Below the pieces are notes generated by a model. That model had not been told where the DNA came from. It saw only the letters and a list, made by a program, of their open reading frames with translations, and ran no database searches. Of a stretch of 32,000 bases of DNA, positions 1-32,000 are shown one piece after another. Position numbers and translations under genes: made by a program. Every line of letters begins with the position of its first letter. Positions within the stretch are counted from its first letter, which is position 1. This DNA comes from Candidatus Saccharimonadota bacterium (GTDB taxonomy: Bacteria; Patescibacteriota; Gracilibacteria; BD1-5; UBA6164): contig OZ245768.1 in assembly GCA_965227835.1 (NCBI GenBank), positions 1,140,001 through 1,172,000 of the forward strand, written 5' to 3'.

Positions 1-52
1 ATTTTATATAATTTTTTTAAATATTTTACATACAATTAATTATATAAAAAAT

Positions 53-1300
53 ATGATGGATCCTTTTAAAAATGCTTTGAAGCAACTTAACGATTCTTGC
101 AGTCTTTTTGAGTACTGTACAAACAATGAAAATATATTTGCTCAAATTTCACAGCCTAAAAGAGTTTTGGAAGTAAATCTTCCAGTTGAAATGGATGACT
201 GAAGTATCAAAGTTTTTACAGCTTATAGATCACAACATAATGATTCAAGATGACCTTTTAAATGAGGTATTAGATTTCATCCAGATGTTACTTTGTCTGA
301 AGTAAAAGCTCTTTCTTTATGGATGACTTTTAAATGCTGAGTGATTGATATTCCTCTTGGTTGATGAAAGGGAGGAGTAATTGTAAATCCTAAAGATTTA
401 AGCGAGAGAGAATTAGAAAGACTTTCTAGGGCTTATGTAAGAGCTATATTTAAATATATTTGACCTGATAGTGATATTCCAGCTCCAGATGTAAATACAA
501 ATCCAAAAATAATGGCATGGATGATGGATGAATATTCTGTTTTAGCTTGAAAATATTCTCCTTGAAGTTTTACATGAAAGCCTCTTGAAATATGAGGAAG
601 TAAGGGAAGAGCTACAGCTACAGCACAAGGTTGAGTTTATGTATTGCAAACTATTTTAAAAGAATTCTCACTGGATATTAAGTGAAAAAAGATTGCTATA
701 CAATGAGCTTGAAATGCTTGATTGACAGCTTGAGAATTACTGAAAGATTTATGAGCTAGGATAGTTGCTATTTCTGACTCTAAATGATGAGTTTATGATG
801 AAAACTGACTAGATTTGTGAGAAATTTCTAGACTTAAAGCTTCTAGGAAGTCTGTTATAGAATATAGTTGAGGTTCTATCTTAAAAGCAAAAGAAATTCT
901 TGAACTTGATGTAGATATTTTAATTCCTGCCGCTCTTGAAAATCAAATTACTTTGAAAAATGCTTCCAGTATAAAGGCTCCTTTTATATTAGAACTTGCC
1001 AACGGACCTGTTACACCAGAAGCAGATGAGATTTTAGAAAAAAACTCTATAAAGGTAGTTCCAGATATTTTAGCAAATTCGGGAGGAGTTATGGTTTCTT
1101 ATTTTGAGCAGGTTCAAAATAATATGAATTTTTATTGGGATGAGCAAGAAGTTGATTCTAAACTTTATAAAAAGATAAGTAGTGCTAGTATTGATGTTTT
1201 CAATACTTCTAAGCAGTATGGTTGTAGTCTTAGAAATTGAGCATATATAGTTTCTATAAAAAGAGTTATGGATGCTATGAAACTTAGAACAGAGGTTTAA
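53..1300 (+). CDS. gdhA: NAD(P)-dependent glutamate dehydrogenase, 415 aa (table 25)
   Basis: ATG at 53, TAA at 1298-1300. No in-frame TAA/TAG (checked triplet by triplet), but 24 in-frame TGA. With TGA=Gly it gives RGPFKGGIRFHP (TGA at 252, 264), PLGGGKGG (TGA at 363, 366) and the IQGAGNAG dinucleotide loop (TGA at 704, 710, 719). The standard-code track sees only the last 95 aa (953..1240). Confidence 0.92.
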
Positions 1301-1321
1301 AAATTTCCTCAAAAAATTTTT

Positions 1322-1376
1322 TCAACAGAGAGCTTTAGATTTTTGCTATTGTAGTAAATTTCTATTTTTGAAAAAA
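1322..1376. repeat. REP-like palindromic intergenic element, copy 1 (degenerate)
   Basis: TCAACAGAGAGCTTTAGATTTTTG followed by ...TTTCTATTTTTGAAAAAA. Same ~55-nt architecture as 19862..19916. The core also occurs at 22131..22154 and inverted at 24877..24905. Confidence 0.6.
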
Positions 1377-1381
1377 GAAAG

Positions 1382-1400
1382 CCCCGGTCTGGAACCGGGG
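1382..1400. terminator. Bidirectional stem-loop CCCCGG-TCTGGAA-CCGGGG between convergent gdhA and small ORF A
   Basis: Perfect 6-bp GC stem flanked by an A-run upstream and a T-rich tract downstream. The identical hairpin recurs at 1819..1837 and 3951..3969, behind the paralogous small ORFs. Confidence 0.6.
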
Positions 1401-1405
1401 ATTTT

Positions 1406-1672
1406 CTAGTTTTGCTTTTTGTTTAAGGTTTCACTAATATGTAACATTATTCTTTTTTCTGCATCACTAATGTGTGATATTATTACTTTTCTTAAATTAC
1501 AAATAAGATCACCTATTAATAAAATGAAAAAAAATAATGCTAACACAAAAAAAAATTTATTCCCTTCAAATAAGGCCACATGAAGACAAAGAAGTGGTAA
1601 AGATGTAACCACTATTTTAGAAATCAAATTTACTATTTTAGCAATATTACCAACAATACCAAATTCTTCCAT
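1406..1672 (-). CDS. Small membrane protein A, 88 aa, function unknown
   Basis: ORF-track ORF with ATG at 1672 and TAG at 1406-1408. Hydrophobic segments (VTSLPLLCLHVALF, FFFVLALFFFILLIGDLI). Has its own conserved upstream leader and terminator hairpin. Contains no TGA. Confidence 0.6.
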   Translation of the reverse strand: MEEFGIVGNIAKIVNLISKIVVTSLPLLCLHVALFEGNKFFFVLALFFFILLIGDLICNLRKVIISHISDAEKRIMLHISETLNKKQN

Positions 1673-1693
1673 AACAGTTCTCCTAAAGAAGAA

Positions 1694-1772
1694 ACAGCAA
1701 AACTATACGAGATATATAGATTTGCCATTTAAAGGTTTAAAAATTAAAACAGAAAAAGCAAATTTTCTATTC
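1694..1772 (-). promoter_or_regulatory. Conserved ~80-nt upstream/leader box of the small membrane-protein cassettes (copy upstream of ORF A)
   Basis: ACAGCAAAA..TATAGATTTGCCATTTAAAGGTTTAAAAATTAAAACAGAAAAAGCAAATTTTCTATTC is shared nearly verbatim with 2142..2221, 3826..3904 and 4274..4353. Each copy lies directly upstream (minus strand) of a small ORF. Confidence 0.5.
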
Positions 1773-1818
1773 TCGTATATTGATTATATCATATTTTTCA
1801 CATATAAGTCAAAAAAAT

Positions 1819-1837
1819 CCCCGGTCTGGAACCGGGG
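1819..1837. terminator. Stem-loop CCCCGGTCTGGAACCGGGG downstream of small ORF B
   Basis: Same hairpin as 1382..1400. Lies 17 nt past the TAG of ORF B on the minus strand. Confidence 0.55.
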
Positions 1838-1853
1838 AGAGTTTTGTCTTTTG

Positions 1854-2120: not shown

Positions 2121-2141
2121 AAAATATTCTCCTTGGATGTA

Positions 2142-2221
2142 ACAGCAAAATTATATGGATAGATATAGATTTGCCATTTAAAGGTTTAAAAATTAAAACA
2201 GAAAAAGCAAATTTTCTATTC
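2142..2221 (-). promoter_or_regulatory. Conserved leader box, copy upstream of ORF B
   Basis: See 1694..1772. Same ~80-nt sequence. Confidence 0.5.
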
Positions 2222-2371
2222 CTCCATATATTTAATTTTAATTATAAGACAAATAATGTCAAAATTTTTTATTCACAAAACTCCCCATTTTTTTTAACAA
2301 AAAAGTCTAAAAAAAGCTTGACAGAGGGGATAATCTAATAATTGAAGTAATATATTATTATTACTTTTTTT

Positions 2372-3460
2372 ATGCAAGAAATACAAAAAATAATAAACAA
2401 AGAACTATGATATTTAATGAAATATGAATGCAAAAATGATAAAAGATTTATTAAAGAGTTTTTTTGAGATATAATAAAGCTAAGAACAACAATAATGAAC
2501 AAATTATGATTTTGAAAATATAAAAATCCTAACAAAATGAGTGAAAAAATAAAACATTTCTTTGAAAAAGATAGTTTTAAAAATTTTAACCTAAAAGTAG
2601 AAAAAAGATGTTTTTCTATGTTATGAAAAATAAATAAAAATGATTATATAGTTTTTGATGAAGTTGATATAGCAAAACAATACTCAAAGAAGCTAGAAAA
2701 TTTATCTAAAGTAAGAGATTGAAGTACTTGAAATATAGTTTCTTGATATATGTATCATTGAGTAAGTATAAATTGAATTCCTGTAATACTTGAGTATGAA
2801 GATTTAACTAATAAATTTAAATCTGAATATTTTTGAAAATTAATTAAAAAAGTAGAAGATTATACTAAATGAAAGTGAATATATGTATATGATGCTTGAT
2901 ATGATATAGCATCATATATAGAGTTTTTAAATAATAGTGTAAATAGATGGATAATAAGAGCTAAAAAGAATAGGATATATTTTGATTTAAAAACCAATAA
3001 ATATTTGAAATTAAAGGAATTTAAAGATTGAGTTCATAAGGTAAGAATTAATTCAGTTAATGAATCAATATATCTTCATATTAAATCAAATCCTAAATTT
3101 CCTGAACCAATGAGGATATTATCAAATTCAAGAAAAACAGATATAGAAGAATATAAACAAAGACGGGAAATAGAGACAATATTTAAAACTATGAAGCAGG
3201 AGTTTCAGCTTGAGAAACTTCAAGCTAAGAGTTTAATAGTATTTAAAAATTTTGTTTCTACTATACAGTTGGCTATGGCTTTGACTAGGACTATATATAA
3301 AAAGAATAATTCTTTTTGTGAGAATCAGAGGTTTATACTTTCTTCTAGATTTAAATCTAGATTTAGAGATTATACAAAATCTCGATGAATAACTATGAAT
3401 TCTAATTCTCAAAACTACCCACTTTTTATAAAAAGTATACCTATATTTTACTTTAAATAA
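2372..3460 (+). CDS. DDE transposase (DDE_Tnp_1-like), 362 aa from ATG 2372 (alternative starts at 2495 and 2537)
   Basis: Open under table 25 (checked). Candidate DDE residues in IVFDEVDI and YVYDAGYD (the G is TGA). C-terminal Y-x2-R-x3-E-x6-K signature YKQRREIETIFKTMK. The standard track sees only 3110..3388. Confidence 0.8.
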
Positions 3461-3779: not shown

Positions 3780-3804
3780 TACCAACAATACCAAATTCTT
3801 CCAT
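3780..3804 (-). pseudogene. 5' fragment of a second copy of small ORF A (8 codons, MEEFGIVG), truncated by the IS
   Basis: Identical to 1648..1672. The reading frame runs straight into the IS right end at 3779. Confidence 0.7.
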
Positions 3805-3825
3805 AACAGTTCTCCTAAAGAAGAA

Positions 3826-3904
3826 ACAGCAAAACTATACGAGATATATAGATTTGCCATTTAAAGGTTTAAAAATTAAAACAGAAAAAGCAAATTTTCT
3901 ATTC
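3826..3904 (-). promoter_or_regulatory. Conserved leader box, copy upstream of the truncated ORF A'
   Basis: Identical to 1694..1772. Confidence 0.45.
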
Positions 3905-3950
3905 TCGTATATTGATTATATCATATTTTTCACATATAAGTCAAAAAAAT

Positions 3951-3969
3951 CCCCGGTCTGGAACCGGGG
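3951..3969. terminator. Stem-loop CCCCGGTCTGGAACCGGGG downstream of ORF B'
   Basis: Identical to 1819..1837. Confidence 0.55.
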
Positions 3970-3985
3970 AGAGTTTTGTCTTTTG

Positions 3986-4252
3986 CTATCCTGTTGGCAT
4001 TTCTTGAGAGATAAAATTCTTATCAAAATTTAACATTCTATCTATCGTTGATGTAGCGATAAACATAATAGAAGCTCCTCCTCCGATAAAGTTTGCTATA
4101 ATTAAATAGTTGAAATTACCATAATCATTTGAAAACCCATAGTTTATAGCACAGTTCATAAGGTGAAAAATTCCTACAACAATAAGTGATAATCCTAAAA
4201 AACAAAAAATACTTTTAATGTTTTCCAAAGAAACTAGTGAAGATTTTTTCAT
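3986..4252 (-). CDS. Small membrane protein B' (paralog of B), 88 aa
   Basis: Differs from B at 5 residues (S->N, V->A, I->T, K->R, V->L), all within the C-terminal 21 codons. Confidence 0.65.
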   Translation of the reverse strand: MKKSSLVSLENIKSIFCFLGLSLIVVGIFHLMNCAINYGFSNDYGNFNYLIIANFIGGGASIMFIATSTIDRMLNFDKNFISQEMPTG

Positions 4253-4273
4253 AAAATATTCTCCTTGGATGTA

Positions 4274-4353
4274 ACAGCAAAATTATATGGATAGATATAG
4301 ATTTGCCATTTAAAGGTTTAAAAATTAAAACAGAAAAAGCAAATTTTCTATTC
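4274..4353 (-). promoter_or_regulatory. Conserved leader box, copy upstream of ORF B'
   Basis: Identical to 2142..2221. Confidence 0.5.
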
Positions 4354-4452
4354 CTCCATATATTTAATTTTAATTATAAGACAAATAATGTCAAAATTTT
4401 TTAGTTTCTAGATTTATCCTCTTGTATTCCTTTAAAAATAACTAATTTTTTT

Positions 4453-4555: not shown

Positions 4556-4843
4556 ATGGCAAATTATGAACTTATGTTTATAATAGATCCTGCTTTACCA
4601 GAAGAAGATAGGAATAAATCTATTGATAAACTAAAAGCTGTTTTTGATAAAAATTCTATAAAAATAGAAAAACAAGATCTTATTTGAGATCAAAAACTAG
4701 CCTATAAAATAAATAAGTCTTCTAAATGATATTATGTTTTATTAGATTTAGAAATGGACTGAAAAGAAATCAAAAATATTTCAAAAGACATAAATCTAGA
4801 TAAAAGTATTTGGAGATATATGTTTACAAAAAAAGAAATATAA
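4556..4843 (+). CDS. rpsF: 30S ribosomal protein S6, 95 aa
   Basis: MANYELMFIIDPAL...LAYKINK..GYYVLL pattern. Classic rpsF-ssb-rpsR order. 3 in-frame TGA read as Gly. Frame checked. Confidence 0.88.
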
Positions 4844-4887: not shown

Positions 4888-5283
4888 ATGAGAACAATAA
4901 ATAAAGTTATACTTATTGGAAATATAACTAAAGATCCTACAGTGAGGACTACTGAAGGAGGTAAAAAAATAGCTATGTTTACTATAGCTACAAATAGAAA
5001 TTTTAAAGATTCAAATGGAGAAGATAGATCCGAAGCTGAGTTCAACAACTGTGTTGTTTGGTGAGCTTTGGCTGATAGAGCCGAATCTTTCGTAAAAAAA
5101 GGTAAACTAGTTTATGCTGAATGAAGATTAAAAACTAGGGTTTTAGAAAAAGAAAATGGAGAAAAATCTTACAGAACAGAGATAGTTGTATCAAATTTGA
5201 TATTTTTAAACAAAAAATCTGATTTTGATTGATGAGAAGAAACATCTGATGAACTAGATTCAATAGATTCAGATGTATTTTAA
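4888..5283 (+). CDS. ssb: Single-stranded DNA-binding protein, 131 aa
   Basis: MRTINKVILIGNITKDP OB-fold start, CVVWG (G is TGA at 5062), acidic C-terminal tail DSIDSDVF. Frame checked. Confidence 0.9.
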
Positions 5284-5310
5284 ACTATATTTTAATTAAA
5301 AATTATTTAT

Positions 5311-5529
5311 ATGACTAAAAAAATATGTCCGTTGGACTGACAAAACATTGATTATAAGAATGTATCTTTATTAAAAAAATACATTACTAAATTTGGTAAA
5401 ATAGTACCTAGATACTATTCTGGAGTTTCATTGAAAAACCAAAAAAAACTATCTAAAGCTATTAAAAGAGCTAGAATTATGGCTCTTATACCTTTTGTTA
5501 AAACTTATGATCCAGAATACAATGGATAG
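5311..5529 (+). CDS. rpsR: 30S ribosomal protein S18, 72 aa
   Basis: [49 protein letters not shown] matches the S18 core. TAG at 5527-5529. Confidence 0.9.
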
Positions 5530-5745: not shown

Positions 5746-7746
5746 TTAAACTAAAATTTTAAAATACATTATCAAATCATCAAAATTAACTTTTTCCAAC
5801 TCAACTTTTAAATGATCTCAAATTTTATAAAAAATATTTTTTCTTTTATCTTCAAACTGCATTAGTTTTTCGTTATAAAAAAAATTATTTCTGTTATTAG
5901 ATTTTTTTCAATTTTCTAGGCTTATAAAACCCTCTGACCCATTTTCTAGAGTTATAAAAAGTCACCTTGTATTTACTCCAGAAATATATGTGTCAAATAC
6001 TTCTCAAATTTTATTTTCATAAAATTTACATATGTAGAAATCTCTTGCTTTGTATTCCAAAGATTCAGCATTTCTTTCTTGTTTTGAGCAATTATCTGCT
6101 ACATTATCTAAAATAAGCTTGTAGTTATTTAAAGCTTCTTTTGAGAGTTTGTTTTTAATTTTATCTTTTATTATTCTGTGTATTTGTAAATCAGGGTATC
6201 TTCTTATAGGTGAAGTAAAATGGCTGTAAAAATCAATTCATAAACCAAAATGTCACTTATTTTTTGTAGAATAGTTAGCCTTGGATAATGATCTTAAAAT
6301 TACTTTCTCAATTATTTGTCTGCTTTTATGGCTTTTAATTTCCTCTAAAAGCAAACTAAATTCCTTACTGTCATATTTTTTAAACATAAAATTTATTCAA
6401 AATAAATTTAAACTATCCTGTAAAATATTAATATCATCTAAACATGGTTTTTCATGAACTCTGTATAAAAAAGGGATATTTGAGAAAAGTTTTCAAACAC
6501 TTTGATTTGCTGAAACCATGAAAACTTCTATAAGTTTATTTGATTCAAATCTAGGCTGTTTTTCTATTCATAAAACTTCCCTTTTTTTGTTTAAAATAAT
6601 TTTTAATTCTGGGAATTCAAAGTCTAAAGTTCATGATTCAATTCTATTTTTTTCAATAAGATATTTTATCTCCCAAGCTAAATTGATATTATTTTCTAAT
6701 TCTTTATCTAGAACTCAATCTCAAAAAAGCTTATCTCATATATTTAAAACTTTATTTTTCTTATATTTATTAGAAAACTCATATTTTTCTTTTGCTCAAA
6801 TTTTATCAACTTCTTCATATGTAAGTCTAAATTTTGACTTTATTAAACTTTCATATACTTCTGCTTTTTTTATATTTCAGTTTTTCAAGACTAGCATTTC
6901 GCATGTTAAAGTTAATTTTTCGGTATTTGGATTTAAACTACAAAGATTATTTGATAATTTTTCTGGTAACATAGGCAATACCCTATCTGCTAAATATACA
7001 GATGTAGCTCTTTTTAGTGCAATTTTATCAAGACTGGAATTTTTGGAAACATAGTTTGAAACATCAGCTATATGAACATATAGTTTATAGCTTTGTTCGT
7101 CTAACTTTTCTACAGATATTGCATCATCTAGATCTTTTGCATCTGGAGAATCAATTGTAAAAGTAAATAGATCTCTTAAATCTTTTCTTGATTTTTTGAT
7201 TTCACTTTTTATATCAATTGTTTCTTTAATTTGTTTTACCTCATTTTCCACACCTTCTCCAAATTTTTCCCTAAATCATGCTTCTAGTATATAGGCATCT
7301 ATATACTTGTTTTTTGCACTTCAAAAAACTTCAATTATCTTTCATTTTGGAGATTTTTTATCATCCCAAGAAACAACTTTTACTCACACTAAATCTCAAT
7401 CTATTGCTTTTTTGAAATATTTTTCTGGAACAAATATATCGGTTTGAATTTTTTTGTTTTTTACTAAAACAAATCCAAATCTATAATAATTATTTTTTGA
7501 TTTTTTTGATTTTTGAAAAATACCTATAAATACATCTCTTTTTCTTTTTAAGATTTTTTTTATTACTGCTTCTTCTCTTCCTCTGAAAATTTTTACTTCT
7601 GCTAATACTTCATCTCAATCTAGTGCTTTTTTTCTATTTGAAAAATGTGTGAAATATCATTTTTTTGTACTTTCTACATCTACAAAACCAAATTCTCATG
7701 ATTTTGAAGAGTGATATATTCAAATTATGTTTTGTTTTTCTTTCAT
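5746..7746 (-). CDS. rnr: Ribonuclease R (RNB family 3'-5' exoribonuclease), 666 aa
   Basis: ATG at 7746, TAA at 5746-5748. No in-frame TAA/TAG over 667 codons (checked). RNB motifs [24 protein letters not shown] and [27 protein letters not shown]-terminal cold-shock-like region. The track sees only 6877..7251. Confidence 0.92.
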
Positions 7747-9084: not shown

Positions 9085-9828
9085 ATGCCAAAATTTAATG
9101 ATTTAGATATGAATAGTGATAAAGATTTAACATATTCAAAAGCTATTGAACAGGTTATGCTAAATAACGGCTTTTATGCTACTCTTAAATTACTTTATGA
9201 AAAAATTTGGGATTACAAAGATAAATCAAATATTGTAGGGAAAACACCAGATATGACTATTCAAGAAAGAGTACAAAGAGACCCTAGGTTTACAAGGATT
9301 GCAAAAGGAGTTTATGCACTCACTGCCTTTTTAGAAAAAGTTGAAAAAGAAGATTTAGGTTTTTTTACTGTAAACAAAAAAGGAGATATTGTTTTCAAAA
9401 AGAATCCAGATTTTGAAACAAGGGTTTTTGAACAGACTGAAAAAATCGTTCAACAAAAAGCAAGAAAAGGACAATCATATTTTAGGGATGTACTTTTAAA
9501 AGAAATGCAAAGATGTCCTATAACAGGAATTGATGACAAAAGGCTCTTGGTTGCAAGTCATATAAAACCTTGGATTCATAGTGATAATGAAGAAAGAGTT
9601 AACTCAAAAAACGGTATATTACTTTCTCCATTGTTTGATAAGCTTTTTGATAAAGGAATTGGACTTATTACATTTACAACTGATAAAAAAATTTTAATTT
9701 CAAATAAACTCTCAAAAGAAAATATTGCCAGATTAAATATTTTTCCAAATAAAACTATAGAGAATTTAGATATTATTGGAAGAGAAAAATATCTTGATTA
9801 CCATAGAAAGTATATATTTCAATGATAA
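9085..9828 (+). CDS. HNH endonuclease (HNH_2-type domain) with an N-terminal HARE-HTH/winged-helix-like domain, 247 aa
   Basis: C-terminal GQSYFRDVLLKEMQRCPITGIDDKRLLVASHIKPW...NGILLSPLFDKLFDKGIGLITF matches the HNH_2 nuclease pattern. N-terminal AIEQVML..GKTPDMTIQERV..DPRFTRIAKGVYAL resembles HARE-HTH. There is no internal TGA and all 11 Gly are GGN. Ends TGA TAA (one extra Gly under table 25). Confidence 0.8.
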
Positions 9829-9872: not shown

Positions 9873-12800
9873 CTACCTCTTCCAAACAAAATTCAAATTA
9901 TCTTTATATTCATAAGTAATACCACTATATGTTCACAGCTCATGAATCTTTTGTAAATCTATTTTAACGAGCTCTCAATTATCATCTCTCAATACTGAAT
10001 TTTCAAAAACTGTCTGAAATGCTCATCACCTATTTGTTCAGTGTCAATGACTAGTGTCAACTATTATCCCATCAAAATTATTATCACTAGCAAAACTTAC
10101 GATATTTTTTAAAATGCTATTATATAAGTCTTTGGAAGACACTTTGGATGTAAACTCTTCACTAGGATTTGGACAAAAAAGTAAATATTTTTTATTATTA
10201 TCTTCTATCTTTAAAAGCATAGTAGTTCAAATATTTTTCTTTCTATCTAAATCCATAAGTAAAAATTCAAAATAATTTGGATTACTCCACATCTCTTTAT
10301 CATTTCAAATACATATTCATCAAACTCATCTTGCTTTAGCTTGCTCCTTTGTCTTTGAAAAATATCAGATAACATTTCTATCTTTTGATGATTTTTTTAC
10401 CAATTCTCAATTTGATTTTTGTTCTAATTCTCTTTTTTCTTCATATTTATCATTTTCCTTTTTCAAAGTTTTATATATTTCTCACTGTAGATTATGAATC
10501 ATTTTTAAATCAAGATCTATTTTATAATTATCTTGTAAAAATTTTAATACATTTTTTTCTAGTTTTATTTCCAGTTTTTTAATATTTTCCTCATTTGATA
10601 ATGCTTTAAAATCCTCTAAATCAAACATATTTACCAAATCTAAAACTCTTTCTTGTAAAAAAGAGTTTGTTTGCAAAGTTGTTGAAAATCTAGTTTTTAA
10701 AGATTTCTCTACAATTTTAAAATTTAGCTTATCTTCAGGAATATTTATAAAAGATCTAATTATTTGTTCTAAAAGTCTTTTTTTTACTAAGTTTTTATAT
10801 TCAGCTTTTTCCTGTAAATTTTTGGTTTTAGGAGCAATTATTTCTAAATCTTTTTTATCTTGTGAGGCAACTATTTTTCTCTCAATAGCATTAATAGTTT
10901 CTTTTAGACTATCACCATATTCATTTATCAAAGCTTCCAGTTGAAAAGCATTTTTAGAGTGCTTGTTACTTATCCTTAATATTTTATCATTACTTGCATT
11001 TTGAAATTCCTCAAACCTTCAAAGTAGCTGATAAGCTAGTAAAACATCCATATCTTCTATATCAAATTTCTGTTTATTCTTTTCAATTTCTTTAAAATAT
11101 TGGATTATCTGGAATTCTATTTTTTCACTACTAAATTGAAAATCAGGTATTATTTTATTTAAACTATCTTGCATAAATTTAGAAATATGACTCTCTCATT
11201 TTGACATTTCTTTTATATTTTCTACCCTTTTTCTAAAAATATTCATTAAATTTTCATCAACTTTTTCTCAATCTTTAAGTTTGTATCAGTTCAATCAAGA
11301 AAAAATCATTTTGTATCAAGTTTTGTCATATATATAATCTTTTAAATGGCTTGAATTGTCTTTATAATCATCCAAGGTTTCAGGAGTATAATAATCTACT
11401 CCATTATATACCATACAGGCAATATCATCTTCAAATCAATAACTAGATTTTATAGGTTTCAATTCAATTAAGTTATTTACTATTTCATCATACTTTAGCA
11501 ATAAATCTTTTTCTTCTTCTTCACTATTTGCTTTTAAAAAATTTATTATAAACTTAGATGGAGCATCTATTCACTTTAAATGAATAATTTTAATGAATTT
11601 TTCTACACGATTAGAATCAAAAAAATTATTATGTTCACCTGAAGATAAAAGACCGATTAAATTATTAAGTATATTTCAAAATTTATCATATTTGTTAGGT
11701 TCTCATATTTTTCATATATACTCCATAAGTATAGATATATTTCCTCAAAAGCTTGTAAGTGTTTTATTATATTTTAAAGCCTCTATTATATCATCTTTTT
11801 TTCATAAATATTTAAATAATACTTCCTTTCAAAAATGATTTTCTAATTGCAAAAGATCATTTAAATGATTGCTGTACATACTTGATATCTCAAACATCTT
11901 ATCTTCTGATTTAATATCTTTTTCATCAAACTCTAATTTATTTATTATATCTATATGATGATTTTGTATTGATTGATTTCTAAAAGAAGTATAAAATCAT
12001 TTAAATTCTAATAAATCATCTAAATTATTAATTTTATTAGAGAAATTTTCTTTTAAAAACTTAAAATAAATTTTGAAGTCTCTAAATGGAGTAAATATAT
12101 CATTATATTTTTTAAAGTCCTCAAAGCTTACTTCAATTCAAAATATCTCTTCTACACTTTTAACATTAATAATTCAAGTTGATGTTATTAGTGAGTAAAA
12201 TGATGGAAATTTATTTAAGGATCAGTCTTCAGATCTTAATGCAATTGGAATTAAATTATCTAAAAATCATTTTTTATCTCTTAAAAAATCATCTCAAAAT
12301 TTTGAAAATATATAATTGTATCCTTTATAATATTCAAAATTTTTAGGCAAAGTGCAATCTGAAGAAATATCGTAAAATTCTTTAAATTCTAATAAATCAT
12401 CTAATGTTTTTATTTTATCAGGGAAGTTTTCTTTTAAAATCTTAAATTCATTTTCAAGATTTTGCCTTGCAATAAATATCTCACTGTATTTTTTAAAATC
12501 TTCAAAACTTATCTCAAATCAAAATATTTCTTTTATATTTAAAATGTTTCAAATTCAGTTCAAACATCCATAATTACTTTTTAAAATATCTAAAAATCAT
12601 TTTTTATCTCTTAAAAAATCATCACTATACTTTGAAAATAAATAACAATATTCTTTTTCTAATCCAATTAAAACTACATTAAGATCATCGCTAAATTCTA
12701 TAAGTTTATGTTTGAAGAAATTTCTATATGAAAATATTTCTGGTATAGTTTTTTCTATTTCAAGATATTCTTTTAAGATATCTTCCCATTTACCTCAAAA

Positions 12801-13994
12801 TATAAAATTTAAGAATTCAATTCAATTTTTTCATTGTAAATCATATTCATCTATAATTCAATAACTACCTCAACTTATCAAATCAGAAGCCTTATAGTCT
12901 GATTTAAAAATTCATCTTAAAATAAGTTCTTCTTTAAAAATATCGTCTCAAAATCTAGAATGTAGCAATTTCAACAAATCAAAATTTTCTTTTTCAGTTT
13001 TACCTCAAAAAGTATTTTTATTTAAGATTTTTAAAACTTTACAAAAGTCACTATTTTTATCTAAACTTATATTTCATTTTCAAAATAGTTCCAATGAATT
13101 TCTTAAAACCTCGTTATCTATGCTAAATAGGTTTTCTACCTGACCTATAACTTCTACTAGTCTTGGAATATCTTTTATTATAGGATCTCCTTCTAAATTA
13201 TTATTTAGGTAAATTAAGTTATTTAATCAATCTTTAGGATATAAGGAAAAGAATAATTCTGTAATTTCTAAATATGAAATAAATTTCTCATCATCTGAAT
13301 TATCTATGTTTAAAAATTTATATAAATTTATAAGTTGATTAAAATCATCTAAATCTATTATAGAATAAAATAAACTATCATAAGTATGTTTAATTATTTT
13401 ATTATATATAAATCATTCAATAGAATTTCTAAGCTTTAAATACTTATCCAAATTTTCAGTTAATAAATCCCTTAGATTTTCTTCTCTCAATATATAAAAA
13501 CATAGTTTATTATCATTTGAGTAAAAATCTCATCTAATTTCTTTGAATTTTTCTAAATCTAAGTTCTTTAAAAAATTAACTCATTCATAACTACATATTG
13601 AAAATTTATTATGTCCTCATTTTTTAATATTTTCATAGTCATTATCTAGTATTCATAATCAAAAATAGTTAACTTTTTCTATCAATCATTTATTTATTCA
13701 CAAAAACTTAAATGATTTTAACACAGACAATCAAATCCTTCAATTTTCATCATATCAAAATTTTTTTCAAAGAATATCAATAAAAAGATTTAAGTTATCT
13801 ATTTCTTCCAAAAAATCATATTCACTTTTTTCTCACTCTACCACTCAATATTCTTTTAATATTTCTTCCCTTGATTTTAGATTAACTAAATTCATAGCTT
13901 TATTTTTAGTATCAAGAACATCTAAAGAAACTTGACTTTCATTTCAGCCTTCTTGTTTTAATCATTGATGTATTTCTAACTCACTAAGTGTCAT
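9873..13994 (-). CDS. Giant orphan protein, 1373 aa, no recognised domain
   Basis: ATG at 13994, TAG at 9873-9875. All 1374 triplets were checked: no TAA/TAG, dozens of TGA. Composition is rich in K/E/D/F/L/N/I. Internal ~125-aa tandem duplication. The C-terminal ~200 aa (..RGVGGICIGNDKEMWSNPNYFEF..IIVDTSHGHGTNRGGAFQ..) is more globular. The track sees only 10482..10931. Confidence 0.8.
11990..12670. repeat. Intragenic tandem duplication (two units of ~330-380 bp) inside the giant ORF
   Basis: Identical 36-nt block at 12258..12293 and 12588..12623. Identical 21-nt block at 12003..12023 and 12384..12404. Protein units share ..FSK(F/Y)(G/S)DDFLRDKKGFLD.. and ..EIFG(F/I)E(I/V)SFEDFKKY..LKENF..DDLLEFK.. 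. Confidence 0.8.
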
Positions 13995-20000: not shown

Positions 20001-22091
20001 ATGGAAATATTTAAAAAGAATTTATTTAAAAATAAGTTAATACTAACCTCTATTTTATCACTTTTTATTTTCATAATAATCTTTTCTCTACCTAAGTTTT
20101 TTATAATCCTAGATAAAAAAATATCTTATTATTTTTTAAAAAATCAAAATAAAAATTTTGAGGTATCAAAAGAAATAGTAGTGGTAAATATTGATGATTT
20201 ATCTATATCAAAAATATGAAGTTTTCCATTTTCTAGAGAAGTTTATTCTACGCTTGTAAAAAACCTAGATGAAAAAAAAGCTTGAGTAATAGCTTTTGAT
20301 ATAATTCTGTCTGATAATTGACCAGATAAAAAAGTGGATGACAATCTATCTTCCAGCATATTTGAATCAAAAAAAGTAGTACTTTGATCAGCAATAGTAG
20401 ATAATTGACTAGAATCTATAATACCCCCTTTGAATAAATTTCTAACTTGATCCACAAAGTACTGATTTTTTACACCAAACATCCATAAAATATCATGAGA
20501 ATCTTATTCTTTTTCACCAATAAAAAGGTTAAATATAACAGAAAAACTAGAAGATTTAAGAGTTAGAAACTCAAAAAAAGATTTTAATCACTTTTCTGTT
20601 GAGATATTAAAAAAATATTTCAGTAGAGAAAATATAAAGTATTACAAAAACTCTATAGAAATAATACCTTGAGAGAAAATACCCTATTCAAATGCTAAAA
20701 ATAAAGAAATTTTAATTAACTACCTCCCAAATAAAAAATTTAAAAAACAAATATCACTTTCAGATATATATTTCAAAGAATGAAGATTTGAAAGCTTTGA
20801 TTTTGAAAACAAAATAATTCTTCTTTGAGCCACAGCAAAAGGTTTAAAAGATATATTCAACACCCCTAATTGAGCTGATTTTTGAGTTTATGTCCATGCA
20901 AATATACTAAATACCATTTTATCTGGTAAATTTTTAGTTCTATTCAATGAAAAACTAGAATGGGCTCTTTTAATTTTAATTATAATTTTGGCTGTTTATT
21001 TCAATTTAAGTAATAACAATAAACTTGTAGTTATATCAAATTTGGTTTTATTTTTCTCATATATAGCTTTATTTAATATTCTTCTTTCACTTCAAGTTTG
21101 AATAATGCTTAATTATCCTGCATATACTATATTTGCTTTTATTATGGCTATAACTATTTCAAACATAGCCAAATACCTAACAGAAAACAAAGACAAAAAA
21201 AGAATGCTTGGGGCACTTAGTGAATATATATCAAAAGATATAGCATCTGAAATACTAAATTCTTCATGAAATGTAAATCTATCGGGAGAAAGAAAAAACA
21301 TATCTATATTTTTCTCTGATATTGAAGGTTTTACAACTATTTCTGAAAAGATGAATCCAGAAGAATTAGTTGAATTTTTGAGAGAATATCTGTGAGCTAT
21401 GAGTAATATAATAATGGATGAAAGATGATTTATAGATAAATATGAATGAGATGCTATTATGGCATTATGGTGAGTATTTGGTCACGAAAACAAATCTAAT
21501 TATGATAATTGTATTTCTGCTTTGAAACAACAGAAAGCTTTAGAAAAACTAAATGTAGCTTGGGAAAAAATATTTGGGCAGAAGCTAAATATTAGGATGT
21601 GATTAAATTTTTGAGAAGCTATTGTTTGAAATATATGAGCTAAAGGAAGAAAAATGGAATTTACAGCTCTTTGAGATTCTGTTAATTTAGCTTCCAGACT
21701 TGAGTCTATAAACAAAAAATATGGAACAAGTATATGTGTTTCTCAAAGTGTTTATAATAACCAAAAAGATAATTTTGAATTTAGATATTTAGATAAAATA
21801 AGAGTAAAAGGGAAAGAAATAGCTACTGATATATATGAACTAGTATGAGAAAAATCTCTTGTATCTGATTTCAAGATGGATATTGCAAGAAGGTTTAAAG
21901 AAGCCATATGATTTTATTTGAAGAGGGATTTTGGGAAAGCTAAAGATATATTTCAAGATTTATCAAACTTGTGAGATAAACCAAGTAGTGTTTATTTGGA
22001 TAGGTGTATTATGTATACAAAAACTCCACCACCTGAAAATTGGGATGGAGTTTGGAATATGGATTCTAAGTAGAGTAAAGCTTATAAAATA
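20001..22091 (+). CDS. CHASE2 sensor domain / class III adenylate-guanylate cyclase, 696 aa as read in frame; apparent 1-nt frameshift near the 3' end
   Basis: N-terminal TM, periplasmic CHASE2-like region ([29 protein letters not shown]), a TM cluster, then cyclase motifs [38 protein letters not shown] and [13 protein letters not shown]. Frame 0 checked to 22020. After the A4 run at 22019-22022 the conserved-looking tail [16 protein letters not shown] lies in another frame (ends 22072). Confidence 0.85.
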
Positions 22092-23308: not shown

Positions 23309-24592
23309 TTATCTAATAAACCAAGAGCTAGCAATATTTTCATATCCCCGACTTCAGTCCCACCATCATTTATTTAATCAAGAGGAATCTATTATAAAAT
23401 GCCATCTACTATCTTTATTGTTATTGTCACCACAATACCGTATATCAACATCAGATATAGTATTATAGTGACCTCAGTACATCAACCGTGAATTTCAACA
23501 ATTTTTATTATCTAATCAAGAAACATTTGATCTGTTAATGAATAAGTCATTTTCAATGCTATGAGGATATCAAGTTATATTATTATGCATTATATCTTCT
23601 ATCTGATTCTTGAACCGTGGTTCTAGTACTGAAATCCATCTTCAGTCTGAATATCTATGATGCCATTCTTCCCATCTATTTCAATTAGTTTGACAAGCTC
23701 AATTTTCTCCAAAAACTTTTAGTGGACATCATCACTGATCTCTAGTAGTTGTTCTTCAATTGTTATAATCATTTACAGGTCATGTGTTTGTAGCAACTAA
23801 TTGCCACCCCCCTCCATCAGTACTCATATCACAATAAACCTCAAATTCATCATTTCAGCTTGGATTTATCTTATAAATTCAATCTCAATTATCTAAGCTA
23901 GATTCTAGTATCCTCTTACAACTAGAATTATATATTGATTTTATTAATTCACTTCAACTTCAACTAATCTTATCAATATCATCTATATGGGATATATATT
24001 CTTCTGGTGTAGTAGCTATATCTAATTCTCAATTATCTTTTATCTCTCATATCTCTTGTACTGGTACATTTAAATTATCTCAACCCCCAGTTAATATTCA
24101 TAGCTTCTTTCAACTTACCTTAACTTGTCTGTCTGCATAATCTATATCATTAGATAATACTTCTCTTCTATTATGTAAACTTACAGTTTCACCTGTTTCT
24201 TCTAGTAATGCCATTAATTGAAAGTTTTTTCTATTGTCTGTAGCATAGTATGAAAAATATGTATTATCTAGTGGGTCTTTACCTTCTTTATCATATTTAA
24301 TTTTTTTTAGTACTTCTTCTCATGCATATCCTTGATATGCTATAGTATCTCAACTAGTTTTAACTTCTATATAGTCATCGGGTATTGGAAGTCTTCATTT
24401 TGTTAGTGATAGTTTTAATCAGTCTCATATACTTTCTAGTTGTACTGTTCTATTTGTATCTCTTACTCATGATAGGTAGTCTGTATAGCTTACAAATCAT
24501 ATTGTTCAGATTATAGCTAATATTGTTACTACTACTATTAGCTCTACTAAGGTGAATGCTTTTTTTGGTTGGAGGGTTAGTTTGTTTTTCAT
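23309..24592 (-). CDS. Type IV pilin-like protein (prepilin N-terminal cleavage/methylation motif) with a C-terminal fibrinogen-like YCDxxxxGGGW domain, 427 aa
   Basis: N-terminus MKNKLTLQPKKAFTLVELIVVVTILAIIGTIGFVSY. C-terminal half SSCKRILESSLDNGDGIYKINPSGNDEFEVYCDMSTDGGGWQLVATN. 428 triplets checked, with many TGA=Gly. Confidence 0.85.
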
Positions 24593-28047: not shown

Positions 28048-28413
28048 CTATGAAAAATTATCAAGAATTAACTTTACTATAAACCACGAAAGAGAAGCTA
28101 AGGCAAAACCCATAATCGAAGCCACTATTGTATCTCTTCATTTTGTTTTATCTTGTTGTAAAGCACCAAAAAGTATCTTGTATGCTCAAACTATTATAAA
28201 TATCACAGCTACACTAGCTGCTATACCCATAAAAAAATTTATAGCATAAGTTATCATATTTGGTATATCTTCAAATCCTATATCTCCCCTTCTTAAATCA
28301 TCTCAATTATCACTTCAAAGTATCCCTCAATCTAAATCATTAGAATAAATTCTATTAATTAAAAGAGAGAAATAAACAAAAAGTAGACTAAAAATTCTTA
28401 TTATGTTTTTCAT
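28048..28413 (-). CDS. Type IV secretion system pilin (TrbC/VirB2-like, CPR-type), 121 aa
   Basis: Signal peptide MKNIIRIFSLLFVYFSLLINRIYS, then two hydrophobic helices separated by a short charged loop (NFFMGIAASVAVIFIIVGAYKILFG..QQDKTKGRD..IVASIMGFALASLSWFIVKLI). Frame checked. Confidence 0.6.
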
Positions 28414-28431
28414 TTTTAATAAAATTAATTT

Positions 28432-29154
28432 TTATTTAATTAAGTCATAATTATCTATTCAAGTTTTCATTTCAGTAAAATTATCAAGTCTAGGGTTATA
28501 ATAATCTATTAAAAAGCTTACAAGTTCGCTTTTACTCAGTTCTTCAGCTTTTACTCACATATTTTCTATTCATGTTTTTATAGAATTTGATCTAGAGCTT
28601 AATTCTTTCTTGGTATTGCTAAAATTTCTTAATCAAGCTTTTATGGTTGCTATATCTACTCAAGAGTTAAATATAGAATTCCAAAAAGATTTTACTGGTC
28701 AAAACATTGTATTGTCTCTGACAGAAGTATTATCAAGATTGTCATAAGGGACTATTATATAAAATTCTTTTTTCATTATTTGAGCAACTTCTATAAGTTT
28801 CTTTAAATATCATATATACTCATAAGTTTGATTTTGTAAAAGAGTATTTTCCTGTTTTAGAGCTTTTTCTTCTAATTTTTGCAAATAACTATCTATATCA
28901 AGTTTTTTTGATCTAATAAGTATTTGAATTGGGAACTTTAGTGTATTTAAAAATCTTTGGAAACTAACTATTATAGCATCTTGTTCTTCAGATGATTTAA
29001 GTAAAAAATTAATTGAAGAGCATTTCAAAATTATTCTAGCACTTCAATCTTTCATTAAAACTATATTATCTCTAATACTACTAAAAGCCAAACTCCTTTG
29101 GGTAGAATTATCAGCTAAAGGCTTTTTGCTAGATTTTACAGAATTTTTACTCAT
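28432..29154 (-). CDS. VirB4/TraC-family N-terminal domain protein lacking the ATPase domain, 240 aa
   Basis: FSSIRDNIVLMKDGSARIILKCSSINFLLKSSEEQDAIIVSFQRFLNTLKFPIQILIRSKKLDIDSYL...KKEFYIIVPY is, from memory, the typical start of CPR/Firmicute VirB4-like ATPases (~800 aa). No Walker A/B motif. The ORF ends at TAA 28432 and the pilin gene starts 18 nt later. Frame checked. Confidence 0.55.
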
Positions 29155-29173
29155 ATTTTTTTGTTTGTATTAA

Positions 29174-29590
29174 CTATATTTTACTTAATTTTTCTTTTAA
29201 CTCGTCCAGTTTCTCTTTTTTATCTTCTAGATTAACTGATTTTTTATCTTCCAAAACATTTTGTGTCAAATATCATATTTCCATAGGTTCAAAACTATCT
29301 GTTCATTTTACCCAAATTTTAGGGTCTCCATTTATGGATAATCTTATCAAATTTAGTATAAATGGCACAAATGTCATTTCGCTGTGTTTAAATAAAACAA
29401 CCATTAAAAATATCAAAAATATTAAAACAGAGGGGACCAAAGATATTTCTAATCAAACACTAGGAGCTAATCATTTTTGTGTCATATAAGCTAAAGCTCA
29501 TCATATCATAAGTATGATAAGTTGCCTTAGGCTAAATGGTCATATTATGGGATCTTCGTTTTCTATTTGTACAGGTATTTTGTATTGCAC
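29174..29590 (-). CDS. PrgI-family (VirB3-like) T4SS membrane protein, 138 aa, probable GTG start
   Basis: (M)QYKIPVQIENEDPIIGPFSLRQLIILMIGGALAYM.. followed by a second TM helix and a K/E-rich tail. GTG at 29590 is the first plausible start after an upstream in-frame TAG. Frame checked. Confidence 0.55.
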
Positions 29591-29655
29591 TTGGAAAAAA
29601 ATAAAGGCTAAATTTATTTTCTAAATTAATTTACAAATAATATAGGGAAAAATAA

Positions 29656-30099
29656 CTATTTTTCAAATACTTCTTGCCATATTGTTTTTTCAAGATCATT
29701 CATCATTTTGTAATCATTGTCTTCTGTATGATCATATCATAGTATATGAAAGACTGAGTGTATCAAAAGTTTATAAAATTCTTTTTCTTCTCAAAGTCCA
29801 TAATATAGGGCTTGTTCTTTTATTTTTTCTTCACAAAAAAGTATTTCTCATGCTATTTCATCAGGTTTTAAATTTGAAAAATCTGAAAAATAATGAAAAC
29901 TCAAAACATCTGTTATTTCATTTTTATTTCTGTATTTATCGTTCAATTTTTTTATACTTTCCTCATCTAAAAACACTATATTCAAGGTTCAATTTTGTTT
30001 TATTTTCACTTTATCAGAAATTTCTTTTAATATCTTGTCAACAACTTTCTTTTCTGGCTTTATGCTTGTGTTTTTTATGAATAAATTGTATCTAAACAT
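29656..30099 (-). CDS. ybeY: rRNA maturation endoribonuclease YbeY, 147 aa
   Basis: ..TDVLSFHYF.. and the zinc motif HSVFHILGYDH (G is TGA). Frame checked. The antisense track ORF 29682..30080 is a shadow. Confidence 0.88.
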
Positions 30100-30142
30100 C
30101 TTATAATTTTTAGTAAAAAATTACCAAAAATTATACAAATAC

Positions 30143-30170
30143 TTGAAAATTATACAAAAATAAATAGAAT
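30143..30170 (+). promoter_or_regulatory. Candidate promoter of the putative sRNA
   Basis: TTGAAA (30143-30148), 16-nt spacer, TAGAAT (30165-30170). Confidence 0.4.
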
Positions 30171-30176
30171 AGTTTT

Positions 30177-30428
30177 CGTATAGGATCTATTTTAGAGGCT
30201 GCATGCTTGGAATATTTTCTCTTACGGTAAATATAATTAAGAATCGCTTTACTACTTTCTATAGTAGGATCTTGTATGAGAATTAAGTTTTTCTGATGGA
30301 TCGAAGGGTTCTTTAAATCTTTTGAATTTTAGGGAGTTACTAAATCTCTAAACTGACCTTGAAACGGATCTTGTATATTTGAATTTTATTTTATAAAAAA
30401 GCTAAATTTAAACGGTTTAGCTTTTTTT
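30177..30428 (+). ncRNA. Candidate ~250-nt non-coding RNA of unknown class
   Basis: Part of a 490-bp ORF-free gap in a densely coding window. Locally raised G+C (~35%). Promoter-like element upstream. Ends in the hairpin AAAAAAGCTAAA-loop-TTTAGCTTTTTTT (30395..30428). GGATCT(T)GTAT-like box repeated at 30183, 30268 and 30367. No ORF longer than 27 codons on either strand. Confidence 0.35.
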
Positions 30429-30587
30429 ATTACGAAAAAACTAATTGGGTTTATGGGAAAATATATAAAGTGTATTTTAGATTTAAAAAAGATTTTTTTA
30501 GAAAAGTAACCCAAGAAAAATGAGCAACGAAAATTTGCAATTTTAGGGTTTTTTATATAATTATTTTTGCTTTTACAAAGCAAAAAA

Positions 30588-30674
30588 GCCCAGGTGGTGA
30601 AATTGGTATACACGGGGGACTCAAAATCCCCTGACCTTATGGTCGTAAGGGTTCAAGTCCCTTCCTGGGTACCA
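30588..30674 (+). tRNA. tRNA-Leu (anticodon CAA), type II with a long variable arm, CCA encoded
   Basis: Acceptor stem GCCCAGG/CCTGGGT, discriminator A, then CCA. Anticodon stem GGGGA/TCCCC with loop CT-CAA-AA. Variable arm TGACCTTATGGTCGTAAG. T-arm AGGG-TTCAAGT-CCCT. Confidence 0.9.
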
Positions 30675-30690
30675 AAGTAAAAATTCAAAA

Positions 30691-30717
30691 AATAGCACTT
30701 AAAAAGTGCTATTTTTT
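30691..30717 (+). terminator. Rho-independent terminator after tRNA-Leu
   Basis: AATAGCACT-TAAAA-AGTGCTATT followed by a T-run. Confidence 0.75.
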
Positions 30718-30853
30718 ATATAATTATATAAAACGGAATATTTCTATAAAATACAATTTAGAATAAATTTAAACATGAAAATAATATGTAATTTTCAAAA
30801 AAGATGTTAAAACTTGAAAGGCAAACTTAAAAATTCTTTATTTAAAAATATGT

Positions 30854-32000
30854 CTAAGCAGTGTACCTTGGCCTATAATGAACCTCCAATTTATCTGGAT
30901 CATTTAATATACGATCAACTTCAAGAGAAGATTTTTTAAAACTGTATTGTAAATAATCAGCAATAATAATACGGGTATTTTGCTTAAAAATTGGGCTATT
31001 CCTACTAATTTTACCTGCTTGATTAAAACTAGAACATGGATTTCCAAATTGATCTTCTAAATTAAGGTTAGAATATTTATTATTTATATTTCCATCTAAA
31101 ATTAAGTCTGGTTCACTAAACTGATACTCACGAATACAATATTGTACAAATATCAATTGTTCTCTTGTTAAATCATCTTTACTCAATTGATCTAAAATAT
31201 CAGAATATGGTTTTCATTCAGATATCATAACAAAGGCTCAAGATAAAATATTTCTTTGTTTCTCTTCGCTAGTAATATTTTCTGAATAACTATGTTCTAA
31301 ATCGGAAAATCTTATATAATTGGTATCTGATTCATTATACCCTAACCCAGGTTTTTCTCAATTAATATTATCTAATCTATATATTTTAGGAGATTTAGAA
31401 TAACCTTGGCTTTCTATTTTATTACTATTATTTCTATCCATTACATTATCTTTAGTTTTAGATTTTGAAGAAGAACCAATAAAAGGAATTAATCAGATAA
31501 GCCCTCTAAAATTTATTGAAGAAAAAAAAGATAAACTTTTTTCTTCTAATTCATTTTCGTCAGCTACCAAAGGCTTTATTCTTGAACGATGAAAAGCTTC
31601 TATTAAGTCAGATTTCAAACAATAAATACGAATAATCTTTGATGAATCAAGTTTTGAAGGTCTTTCTTTATACCACCTACCTTTTATTTCATCCCAAAAA
31701 ATACCCTGAGTTTTCATCCTTGCATGAATTCTAGGACTCCATTCTCTTTTTAAATTGAGTTGATTTATTCAAGATAAGTGATTATCATTAGAATGTTGAT
31801 TTTGAGAATCTAAAGCTTCATTAATTTCGTTAGTTTCATTAGTTTCTTCAGATTTTAATTCATCTGGAGTAATAATATCTTTAGGGAAAATTCATTCAAA
31901 TGGTTTTCTAGCTTCTTCTATTGCATTTCTAGGTTCATCAAGTTGGTTAAAAAGATCTGCCAAATATTTTGAATATTCAGGTCTTGGATCTTTTTGACTA
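30854..32000 (-). CDS. Hypothetical protein, C-terminal 381 codons (5' end beyond the window)
   Basis: Track ORFs 31493..31717 and 30854..31186 are in one frame. The stretches between and upstream of them have no TAA/TAG (checked), only TGA. TAG at 30854-30856. No motif recognised (..EWSPRIHARMKTQGIFWDEIKGRWYKERPSK..). Confidence 0.7.

Follow-up and report, generated by a model that had tools for sequence, protein, structure and literature searches.

Genetic codes with UGA as a sense codon

Reading of UGA as glycine is documented in the Gracilibacteria/Absconditabacteria lineage (PMC8629427, PMC4032931, PMC11452946) and corresponds to translation table 25, the Candidate Division SR1 and Gracilibacteria code (Campbell 2013 and Rinke 2013, as cited in PMC8629427; Hanke 2014, PMC4032931). 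An extended code, in which CGA and CGG are read as Trp in addition to UGA as Gly, is described for Absconditabacteria (Shulgina & Eddy 2021, PMC8629427), and reassignment of CGG to Trp is predicted for some Gracilibacteria (PMC8629427). Phages that are free of TGA and thus code-neutral have been predicted to interact with hosts that use code 25 as well as with standard-code hosts (Liu et al. 2023, PMC10746230).

The 32,000-nt stretch of DNA analysed here (hereafter the window) resembles table 25 organisms in its low GC content, in UGA as a sense codon for Gly, in UGG as the Trp codon, and in UAA and UAG as the only stops. Further similarities are the CPR-like content (T4SS pilin, type IV pilin, small genome) and the nearest named homologues, which are from Gracilibacteria. 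With regard to the assignment of UGA, the window and table 25 do not differ. Table 4 (Mycoplasma/Spiroplasma) shares with the window a sense UGA in a low-GC genome, but UGA stands for Gly here and not for Trp. We consider it almost certain (probability about 0.97) that the window belongs to a low-GC chromosome that uses NCBI table 25, probably that of a member of the Gracilibacteria/Absconditabacteria (Patescibacteria/CPR). Since UGA = Gly is a well-established code, this main finding in itself adds nothing new.

Gene content and open reading frames

The window has a GC content of 25.4%. Its 24 reading frames, delimited by TAA/TAG, contain 305 in-frame TGA codons (36 per 1000 codons), no in-frame TAG, and a single in-frame TAA that results from one loosely set frame boundary. 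All 24 genes end with TAA (13) or TAG (11), and UAA and UAG are the only terminators. The features discussed below are as follows, where L002 is a related contig from an independent metagenome.

53-1300, plus strand: gdhA (glutamate dehydrogenase); 24 in-frame TGA; Pfam ELFV_dehydrog_N and ELFV_dehydrog, full length
2372-3460, plus strand: IS transposase (Pfam DDE_Tnp_1); 16 of 16 Gly codons are TGA
4556-4843, plus strand: rpsF (ribosomal protein S6); 3 TGA, 0 GGN; Pfam Ribosomal_S6, 1-90 of 90
4888-5283, plus strand: ssb; 4 TGA; Pfam SSB, 1-103 of 104; PDB alignments
5311-5529, plus strand: rpsR (ribosomal protein S18); 1 TGA; orthologous to an L002 gene annotated Ribosomal_S18
5746-7746, minus strand: rnr (RNase R); 24 TGA; Pfam RNB, OB_RNB and CSD2
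9085-9828, plus strand: HNH_2 restriction-type endonuclease gene; 11 GGN, no internal TGA; terminus Phe-Gln-TGA-TAA
9873-13994, minus strand: 1373-aa protein; 65 TGA
14463-15245, minus strand: short-chain dehydrogenase; 14 TGA; Pfam adh_short; PDB alignments
15493-17265, minus strand: 590-aa membrane-anchored protein; GC 36%; 58 GGN, 1 TGA (15550-15552)
20001-22073, plus strand: CHASE2 and class III nucleotidyl cyclase; 27 TGA; Pfam
23309-24592, minus strand: type IV pilin-like protein with fibrinogen/intelectin-like domain; 32 TGA
28048-29620, minus strand: three genes for T4SS pilin, TraC-like and PrgI-like proteins; 5, 8 and 7 TGA; Pfam T4SS_pilin, and Pfam on the L002 orthologues
29656-30099, minus strand: ybeY; 4 TGA, one of them the Gly of the H-x-x-x-H-x-x-G-x-x-H motif
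30588-30674, plus strand: tRNA-Leu(CAA), the only tRNA in the window

A preliminary description of this DNA had regarded the whole window as recoded. This holds with two exceptions, namely the gene at 15493-17265 (minus strand) and the HNH gene at 9085-9828 (plus strand). Stop-to-stop ORFs that do not overlap and reach 60 aa or more, the longest taken first, were compared under several stop sets. With the stops of code 11, ORFs cover 57% of the window and only one reaches at least 300 aa, whereas TAA and TAG as sole stops yield 89% coverage and 11 ORFs of at least 300 aa. Opening TAG or TAA instead, as a control, gives one and three such ORFs, respectively. The Pfam domains of GDH, RNase R, SSB, S6, SDR, YbeY, CHASE2-cyclase and DDE transposase are full length and uninterrupted by the TGAs, and alignments to homologues extend to within a few residues of the reference C-terminus or the end of the family model (gdhA, 414/419; S6 model, 90/90).

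TGA encodes glycine

The meaning of TGA was assessed against one standard-code PDB homologue per gene. Of the 75 positions at which TGA could be aligned, 41 have Gly in the reference and none has Trp, against a Gly background of 7% (binomial p = 2e-27). With the same references, the GGN codons of the window match Gly at the same rate (38/64), and TGG is found opposite Trp at 6 of 12 positions. The preliminary assignment of TGA to Gly with TGG kept for Trp, that is table 25 and not table 4, is thereby upheld. In a per-codon table from seven genes, all well-sampled codons keep their standard meaning except TGA, which is assigned to G.

Single genes illustrate this pattern. In the alignment of gdhA with 1euz_A (E = 8e-130), the residues opposite TGA are G (17), A (5), R (1) and D (1); in rpsF they are G, G and P (compared with M. 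tuberculosis bS6). For rnr, G is found opposite 9 of 22 aligned TGA in B. subtilis RNase R and 11 of 19 in E. coli RNase R, and W opposite none. G also faces TGA at 8 of 10 positions in the comparison of the cyclase with CyaB (3r5g), the TGxxxGIG loop of the short-chain dehydrogenase includes the TGA codon at 15201-15203 (minus strand), and the YDA-x-YD motif of the transposase contains a TGA codon at 2897. The count of 24 in-frame TGA in gdhA had been given exactly in the preliminary description, and the TGAs that it placed at 704, 710, 719, 5062, 21672 and 15201-15203 (minus strand) are indeed in frame. Four other coordinates (252, 264, 363 and 366) were one base too high and must be corrected to codon starts at 251, 263, 362 and 365. 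The claim that the TGA in the VVW-G motif of SSB marks an invariant Gly does not hold either, as Arg occupies this position in the B. subtilis SsbA chains and in a third SSB structure.

A scan of genome contigs with RNase R gave a Clostridiales locus (36% identical) as its sole match. L002, which is about 90% identical to the window, allows a comparison at the codon level. Among 2522 aligned codons, 77 TGA are conserved; TGA is exchanged with GGA seven times, with TAT once, and never with TGG. In ordinary genes of the window TGA makes up about 72% of the Gly codons and is thus the main Gly codon, and with TGA read as Gly their products contain 5.6% Gly and 0.6% Trp.

A Mycoplasma-type code 4, with UGA as tryptophan, might be suspected because the public protein collection that we searched translates the source genome with TGA = Trp and because one TGA (15550-15552) lies in a conserved Trp column. 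However, the complete lack of Trp opposite TGA in the 75 aligned positions, against 41 matches to Gly, and the exchange of TGA with GGA but never with TGG in orthologues make this reading highly improbable, and it would also imply contents of about 4% Trp and 2% Gly. Even less credible is the standard code, under which the TGAs would have to reflect pseudogenes, assembly errors, selenocysteine or programmed readthrough. Apart from the mere presence of in-frame TGA, nothing speaks for it. Ribosomal protein genes, ssb and rnr are among those that contain the 305 TGA codons; 77 of these codons are conserved one by one in an independent metagenome contig, and they occupy Gly-specific positions in frames essentially devoid of TAA and TAG.

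Some observations also count against table 25. The TGA in the conserved Trp column is one of them, although it concerns one site only and the gene is atypical. Named relatives are distant: the nearest named homologues of RNase R stem from Candidatus Gracilibacteria and share at most 49% identity. In this lineage, UGA is decoded as Gly by a tRNA-Gly with the anticodon UCA, and release factor 2 has been lost. By analogy with its relatives, the source organism would read UGA via tRNA-Gly(UCA) and would have lost release factor 2. A tRNA-Gly(UCA) was found neither in the window, where tRNA-Leu(CAA) is the only RNA gene detected by Rfam and ARAGORN, nor in those loci of recoded genomes that were scanned for tRNAs, where tRNA-Leu(CAA) is again the only tRNA.

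CGG as a possible tryptophan codon

Plain table 25 may be incomplete here because CGG probably encodes Trp. According to this reading, which refines table 25 and is no true rival to it, a Trp-accepting tRNA would have taken over the rare CGG, and CGA would still be Arg. The window contains six CGG codons, about 2% of its nominal Arg codons. The CGG at 3164-3166 in the transposase gene occupies the invariant Trp of the motif Y-x-x-R-W-x-I-E; this column is W in 75 of 89 homologues, and the 14 sequences with 'R' are the closest relatives. Among 23 DNA copies of the IS family, the codon at the Trp site is TGG (14) or CGG (9) and never AGA, AGG, CGT or TGA, whereas the adjoining invariant Arg is encoded by AGA (14), CGA (5) or CGT (4) and never by CGG. 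In the low-GC IS copies, CGG is essentially confined to the Trp column.

The rarity of CGG in the window and its one informative occurrence, at an invariant Trp and alternating with TGG in IS relatives, are reminiscent of the extended Absconditabacteria code. In contrast to that code, CGA behaves as Arg in the close relatives of the window, which carry it at conserved Arg positions. In the transposases of L009-L011, L024 and L025, the motif has CGA at its invariant Arg, which argues against CGA = Trp, and the Y1 transposase of L002 has CGA at the 'KY[R]KK' position, presumably a conserved Arg of that family. The pattern in the window is thus like the 'CGG only' variant that was predicted in some Gracilibacteria (PMC8629427) and unlike the full Absconditabacteria code.

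Our preference for CGG = Trp is nevertheless a cautious one, as only one of the six CGG codons in the window is informative. Four others (23617, 23488, 23440 and 23350) lie in the pilin-like gene; the intelectin/fibrinogen-like PDB matches to the C-terminal half of its product cover only the first ~50-70 query residues, and the CGG positions fall outside. The CGG of the 590-aa gene is in a variable column without Trp. Furthermore, CGG lies at conserved Arg columns in the L005 and L006 members of the 590-aa family, and the reassignment may be absent from these two genomes. Finally, no tRNA(CCG) was seen.

A gene family that avoids UGA

The gene for the 590-aa membrane-anchored protein differs from its surroundings in codon usage. 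Apart from the TGA at a Trp site in the window, its orthologues in four diverged recoded genomes contain no TGA among about 218 Gly codons, whereas TGA accounts for 50-70% of the Gly codons in the genes next to these orthologues. The gene is also enriched in CGT, ATC and TAC codons. Its AlphaFold model is confident (pLDDT 85) and has no meaningful fold match in the PDB (TM ≤0.18), and the protein has no Pfam or NCBIfam matches.

The TGA at 15550-15552 is the one TGA seen in a conserved Trp column; 29 W and 2 F are found in its column among the 32 homologues with a residue there. As the orthologues carry TGG at this position, a TGG to TGA transition is the simplest reading.

Two explanations of the TGA avoidance were considered and rejected. 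High expression alone does not account for it, because the ribosomal proteins of L002 show only a mild depletion of TGA (56% versus 69%) and lack the enrichment of CGT, ATC and TAC. Nor does one recent horizontal transfer agree with the data: the copies from recoded genomes form one clade with 58-64% identity, and their synonymous sites are saturated. A tentative alternative, to which we give rather less than even odds, is that selection has kept the family free of UGA inside UGA = Gly bacteria. A UGA-free family would then be 'code-neutral', that is, read identically under codes 11, 4 and 25. Repeated movement of the gene between recoded episymbionts and standard-code bacteria could favour the absence of UGA; alternatively, its message might need accurate translation where UGA decoding is unreliable.

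As in the TGA-free phages, in-frame TGA is avoided in the 590-aa family and in the HNH gene, and their stops are TAA or TAG; except for the single TGA in the window, their products would be the same under code 11, 4 or 25. Unlike those phages, they are single chromosomal genes without phage context, and avoidance in the 590-aa family lasts across four diverged recoded genomes.

Consequences for annotation and gene flow

Annotation of the contig with table 11 would fragment almost every gene. The preliminary description had warned that standard-code annotation misleads, and code 11 ORFs are indeed short (median 81 aa), but the error actually made in public data is a different one, namely translation with code 4 and TGA = Trp. 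Density-based gene finders choose table 4 for such genomes. In the window, table 4 puts Trp in the place of 305 Gly residues, some of them in catalytic and nucleotide-binding loops, and homology searches and structure prediction are therefore degraded. If CGG is confirmed as a Trp codon, table 25 would be slightly wrong for the source organism, too. A UGA-free gene family in recoded genomes, if confirmed, would be relevant to the question whether an altered code really impedes gene flow.

Coding Frames and Gene Content

With TAA and TAG as the only stops, the window (25.4% GC) contains about 24 long reading frames, which together hold 305 in-frame TGA, 192 GGN, and 59 TGG codons. The coding frame has 36 TGA per 1000 codons, no TAG, and essentially no TAA; in the two off-frames, TAA and TAG are frequent. 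Non-overlapping stop-to-stop ORFs were picked longest first under several stop sets. They cover 57% of the window with code 11 stops (median 81 aa; one ORF of at least 300 aa) versus 89% with TAA and TAG alone (11 ORFs of at least 300 aa), and control sets that opened TAG or TAA in place of TGA gave no comparable set of long ORFs. Gene ends comprise 13 TAA and 11 TAG, and every gene is accounted for. The preliminary description had regarded the whole window as recoded, which holds with two exceptions, the HNH and 590-aa genes treated below. Its count of 24 in-frame TGA in gdhA is exact, as are most of its TGA coordinates; the exceptions, 252, 264, 363, and 366, should each be lowered by one base.

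Frames translated with TGA masked as X gave full-length Pfam matches across the masked positions for glutamate dehydrogenase, the DDE transposase of an insertion sequence (IS), S6, SSB, RNase R, a short-chain dehydrogenase, a CHASE2-nucleotidyl cyclase, a T4SS pilin, and YbeY; S18 is located between ssb and rnr. This gene content is cellular and CPR-like, not phage. Genes referred to by position are:

2372-3460 (+), DDE transposase gene of the IS
9085-9828 (+), HNH_2 endonuclease (full-length Pfam match)
9873-13994 (-), 1373-aa protein without family assignment, 65 TGA codons
15493-17265 (-), 590-aa membrane-anchored protein without family assignment
23309-24592 (-), type IV pilin-like protein with a fibrinogen/intelectin-like domain (full-length Pfam match)

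The pilin-like protein carries the N-terminal methylation motif and is fused to the fibrinogen/intelectin-like lectin domain, and its gene shows the window's highest TGA density (32 TGA in 431 codons). The 1373-aa protein contains an internal repeat (...FSK[YF]xDDFLRDKKxFLD...) twice, with similar segments after each copy.

The Amino Acid Encoded by TGA

Seven genes with masked TGA were aligned to solved-structure homologues from standard-code organisms, one reference per gene. Gly stands opposite TGA at 41 of 75 aligned positions (Gly background in the references 7%; binomial p = 2e-27), the same rate as for the window's GGN codons (38/64). The other residues are mainly Ala, Asp, Glu, Lys, and Ser, and Trp is found at none of the 75 positions, whereas TGG is opposite Trp at 6 of 12. 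In a per-codon table, all well-sampled codons correspond to their standard amino acid, with TGA, assigned to Gly, as the sole exception. Amino acid composition agrees: ordinary genes contain 5.6% Gly and 0.6% Trp if TGA is Gly, versus about 2% and 4% if it is Trp. The preliminary description's reading of TGA as Gly is thus upheld, as is its rejection of code 4 on the grounds that Trp is encoded by TGG. Its claim of an invariant Gly at the VVW-G site of SSB was too strong, because the SsbA chains of B. subtilis and a third SSB structure have Arg at this position.

The related ENA metagenome contig L002 shares 11 orthologous genes with the window and encodes a homologue of RNase R with 89% identity. 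Across 2522 codons aligned in their true frames, 77 TGA codons are conserved, TGA and GGA are exchanged seven times, TGA and TAT once, and TGA and TGG never, which is the pattern expected of synonymous TGA and GGA.

The UGA=Gly assignment is correct and firmly backed by the evidence; the code itself is known, and the genome was already public. The nearest named homologues of RNase R belong to Candidatus Gracilibacteria (at most 49% identity), and the reading of UGA as Gly is documented for both Gracilibacteria and Absconditabacteria (PMC8629427, PMC4032931, PMC11452946). According to the literature on this lineage, UGA would be decoded by a tRNA-Gly(UCA) and RF2 would have been lost; a tRNA scan of the window and of a subset of the recoded-genome loci detected tRNA-Leu(CAA) only, and no tRNA-Gly(UCA) there. 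The mis-annotation of which the preliminary description warned is real. A large public protein collection already contains the window's own proteins, assigned to a 1,489,121-bp NCBI/ENA contig and translated with TGA as Trp (RNase R: 3.9% Trp, 1.5% Gly), and its entries P0241, P0001, and P0244 show this genome and its relatives translated in the same way. Consequently, homology-based statistics on these lineages are systematically distorted.

Genes Avoiding TGA

The HNH gene contains 11 GGN and no internal TGA codons and ends in ...Phe-Gln-TGA-TAA. The NCBIfam model of a phosphorothioated DNA-binding restriction endonuclease matches its product weakly, with 30 bits where the cut-off is 180. 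The gene appears to have been acquired recently from a standard-code donor, and its TGA looks like the inherited donor stop, now read through by one codon as an extra Gly. In another recoded genome, a 203-aa OB_RNB/CSD2 protein (L003, 3813-4424, +) has 27 GGN and no TGA codons, and its gene adjoins genes with 18-21 TGA.

The 590-aa gene has 36% GC versus about 24% in its surroundings, CGT makes up 44% of its Arg codons versus 3% elsewhere, and its Gly codons comprise 58 GGN (39 GGT) and one TGA. This sole TGA, at 15550-15552 (-), falls in a conserved Trp column (motif W-[ED]-[ND]-L-[ST]); of the 32 homologues that have a residue in this column, 29 have W and 2 have F. The corresponding codon is TGG in the orthologues from other recoded genomes. 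The TGA is a Trp-to-Gly change under code 25 and would remove the last 19 residues under code 11. Three other TGA-recoded genomes (L003/L004, L005, and L006) carry orthologues with 58-64% identity to the window copy:

L003, 6001-7686
L005, 2215-3960
L006, 2909-4573

These have 33-40% GC and no TGA among 52-56 Gly codons each, although TGA is frequent in the neighboring genes and makes up 50-70% of their Gly codons. Across the four diverged recoded genomes, and leaving aside the window's TGA in the Trp column, TGA encodes none of about 218 Gly residues in this family. Synonymous sites are saturated: the GGN codon differs in 35 of 38 shared Gly columns, and none of the 152 codons in these columns is TGA. 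In a neighbour-joining tree, the copies from recoded genomes group as a single clade. Identity to standard-code homologues, including those of Flammeovirga and Bernardetia, is about 50%. High expression might be considered as the cause of TGA avoidance. However, the L002 ribosomal proteins are only mildly depleted in TGA and, unlike the 590-aa gene, not enriched in CGT, ATC, or TAC, so that expression alone does not account for the pattern. The nearest precedent comes from phages that lack TGA and are predicted to interact with hosts of either code, 25 or standard (PMC10746230). Structure prediction gave a confident model of the 590-aa protein, for which comparison with PDB folds returned no match.

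CGG as a Candidate Tryptophan Codon

CGA (2) and CGG (6) are rare in the window. The CGG codons are located at:

3164-3166 (+), transposase gene
16122 (-), 590-aa gene
23617, 23488, 23440, and 23350 (-), pilin-like gene

The transposase CGG occupies the Trp site of the motif Y-x-x-R-W-x-I-E-x-x-F-K. This column holds W in 75 of 89 homologues, standard-code ones among them, and an apparent R in the other 14, which are the window's closest relatives. Among the 23 IS copies with available DNA sequence (20 distinct), all from TGA-recoded genomes, the Trp-site codon is TGG in 14 and CGG in 9, and AGA, AGG, CGT, or TGA in none. The adjacent invariant Arg is encoded by AGA, CGA, or CGT in these copies, never by CGG, and CGA is found at conserved Arg positions in close relatives. 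CGG is essentially confined to the Trp-site column in low-GC copies; in recoded copies of 38-50% GC it lies in Arg/Lys columns. This pattern agrees with a published prediction that some Gracilibacteria read CGG as Trp (PMC8629427), and we consider this reading somewhat better than an even bet in the present lineage (probability roughly 0.6). The four CGG codons of the pilin-like gene cluster in its Trp-rich C-terminal lectin-like domain.

The 20 distinct IS copies (window 2372-3460, +, and loci L008-L030) contain 4-23 TGA each, and the family appears to be restricted to UGA=Gly hosts; the source contig encodes several proteins of this transposase family. A 624-nt direct duplication (1648-2271 and 3780-4403, +; about 99% identical, offset 2132 nt) lies on either side of the transposase gene. 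Each copy includes a hydrophobic-looking 98-codon minus-strand reading frame and a GC-rich hairpin, CCCCGGTCTGGAACCGGGG, which recurs at 1382-1405.

The main claim, UGA=Gly, is of low interest in itself, and further work would better be directed at the UGA-free gene family and the evidence on CGG. If CGG does encode Trp, plain table 25 would mistranslate a few codons here.
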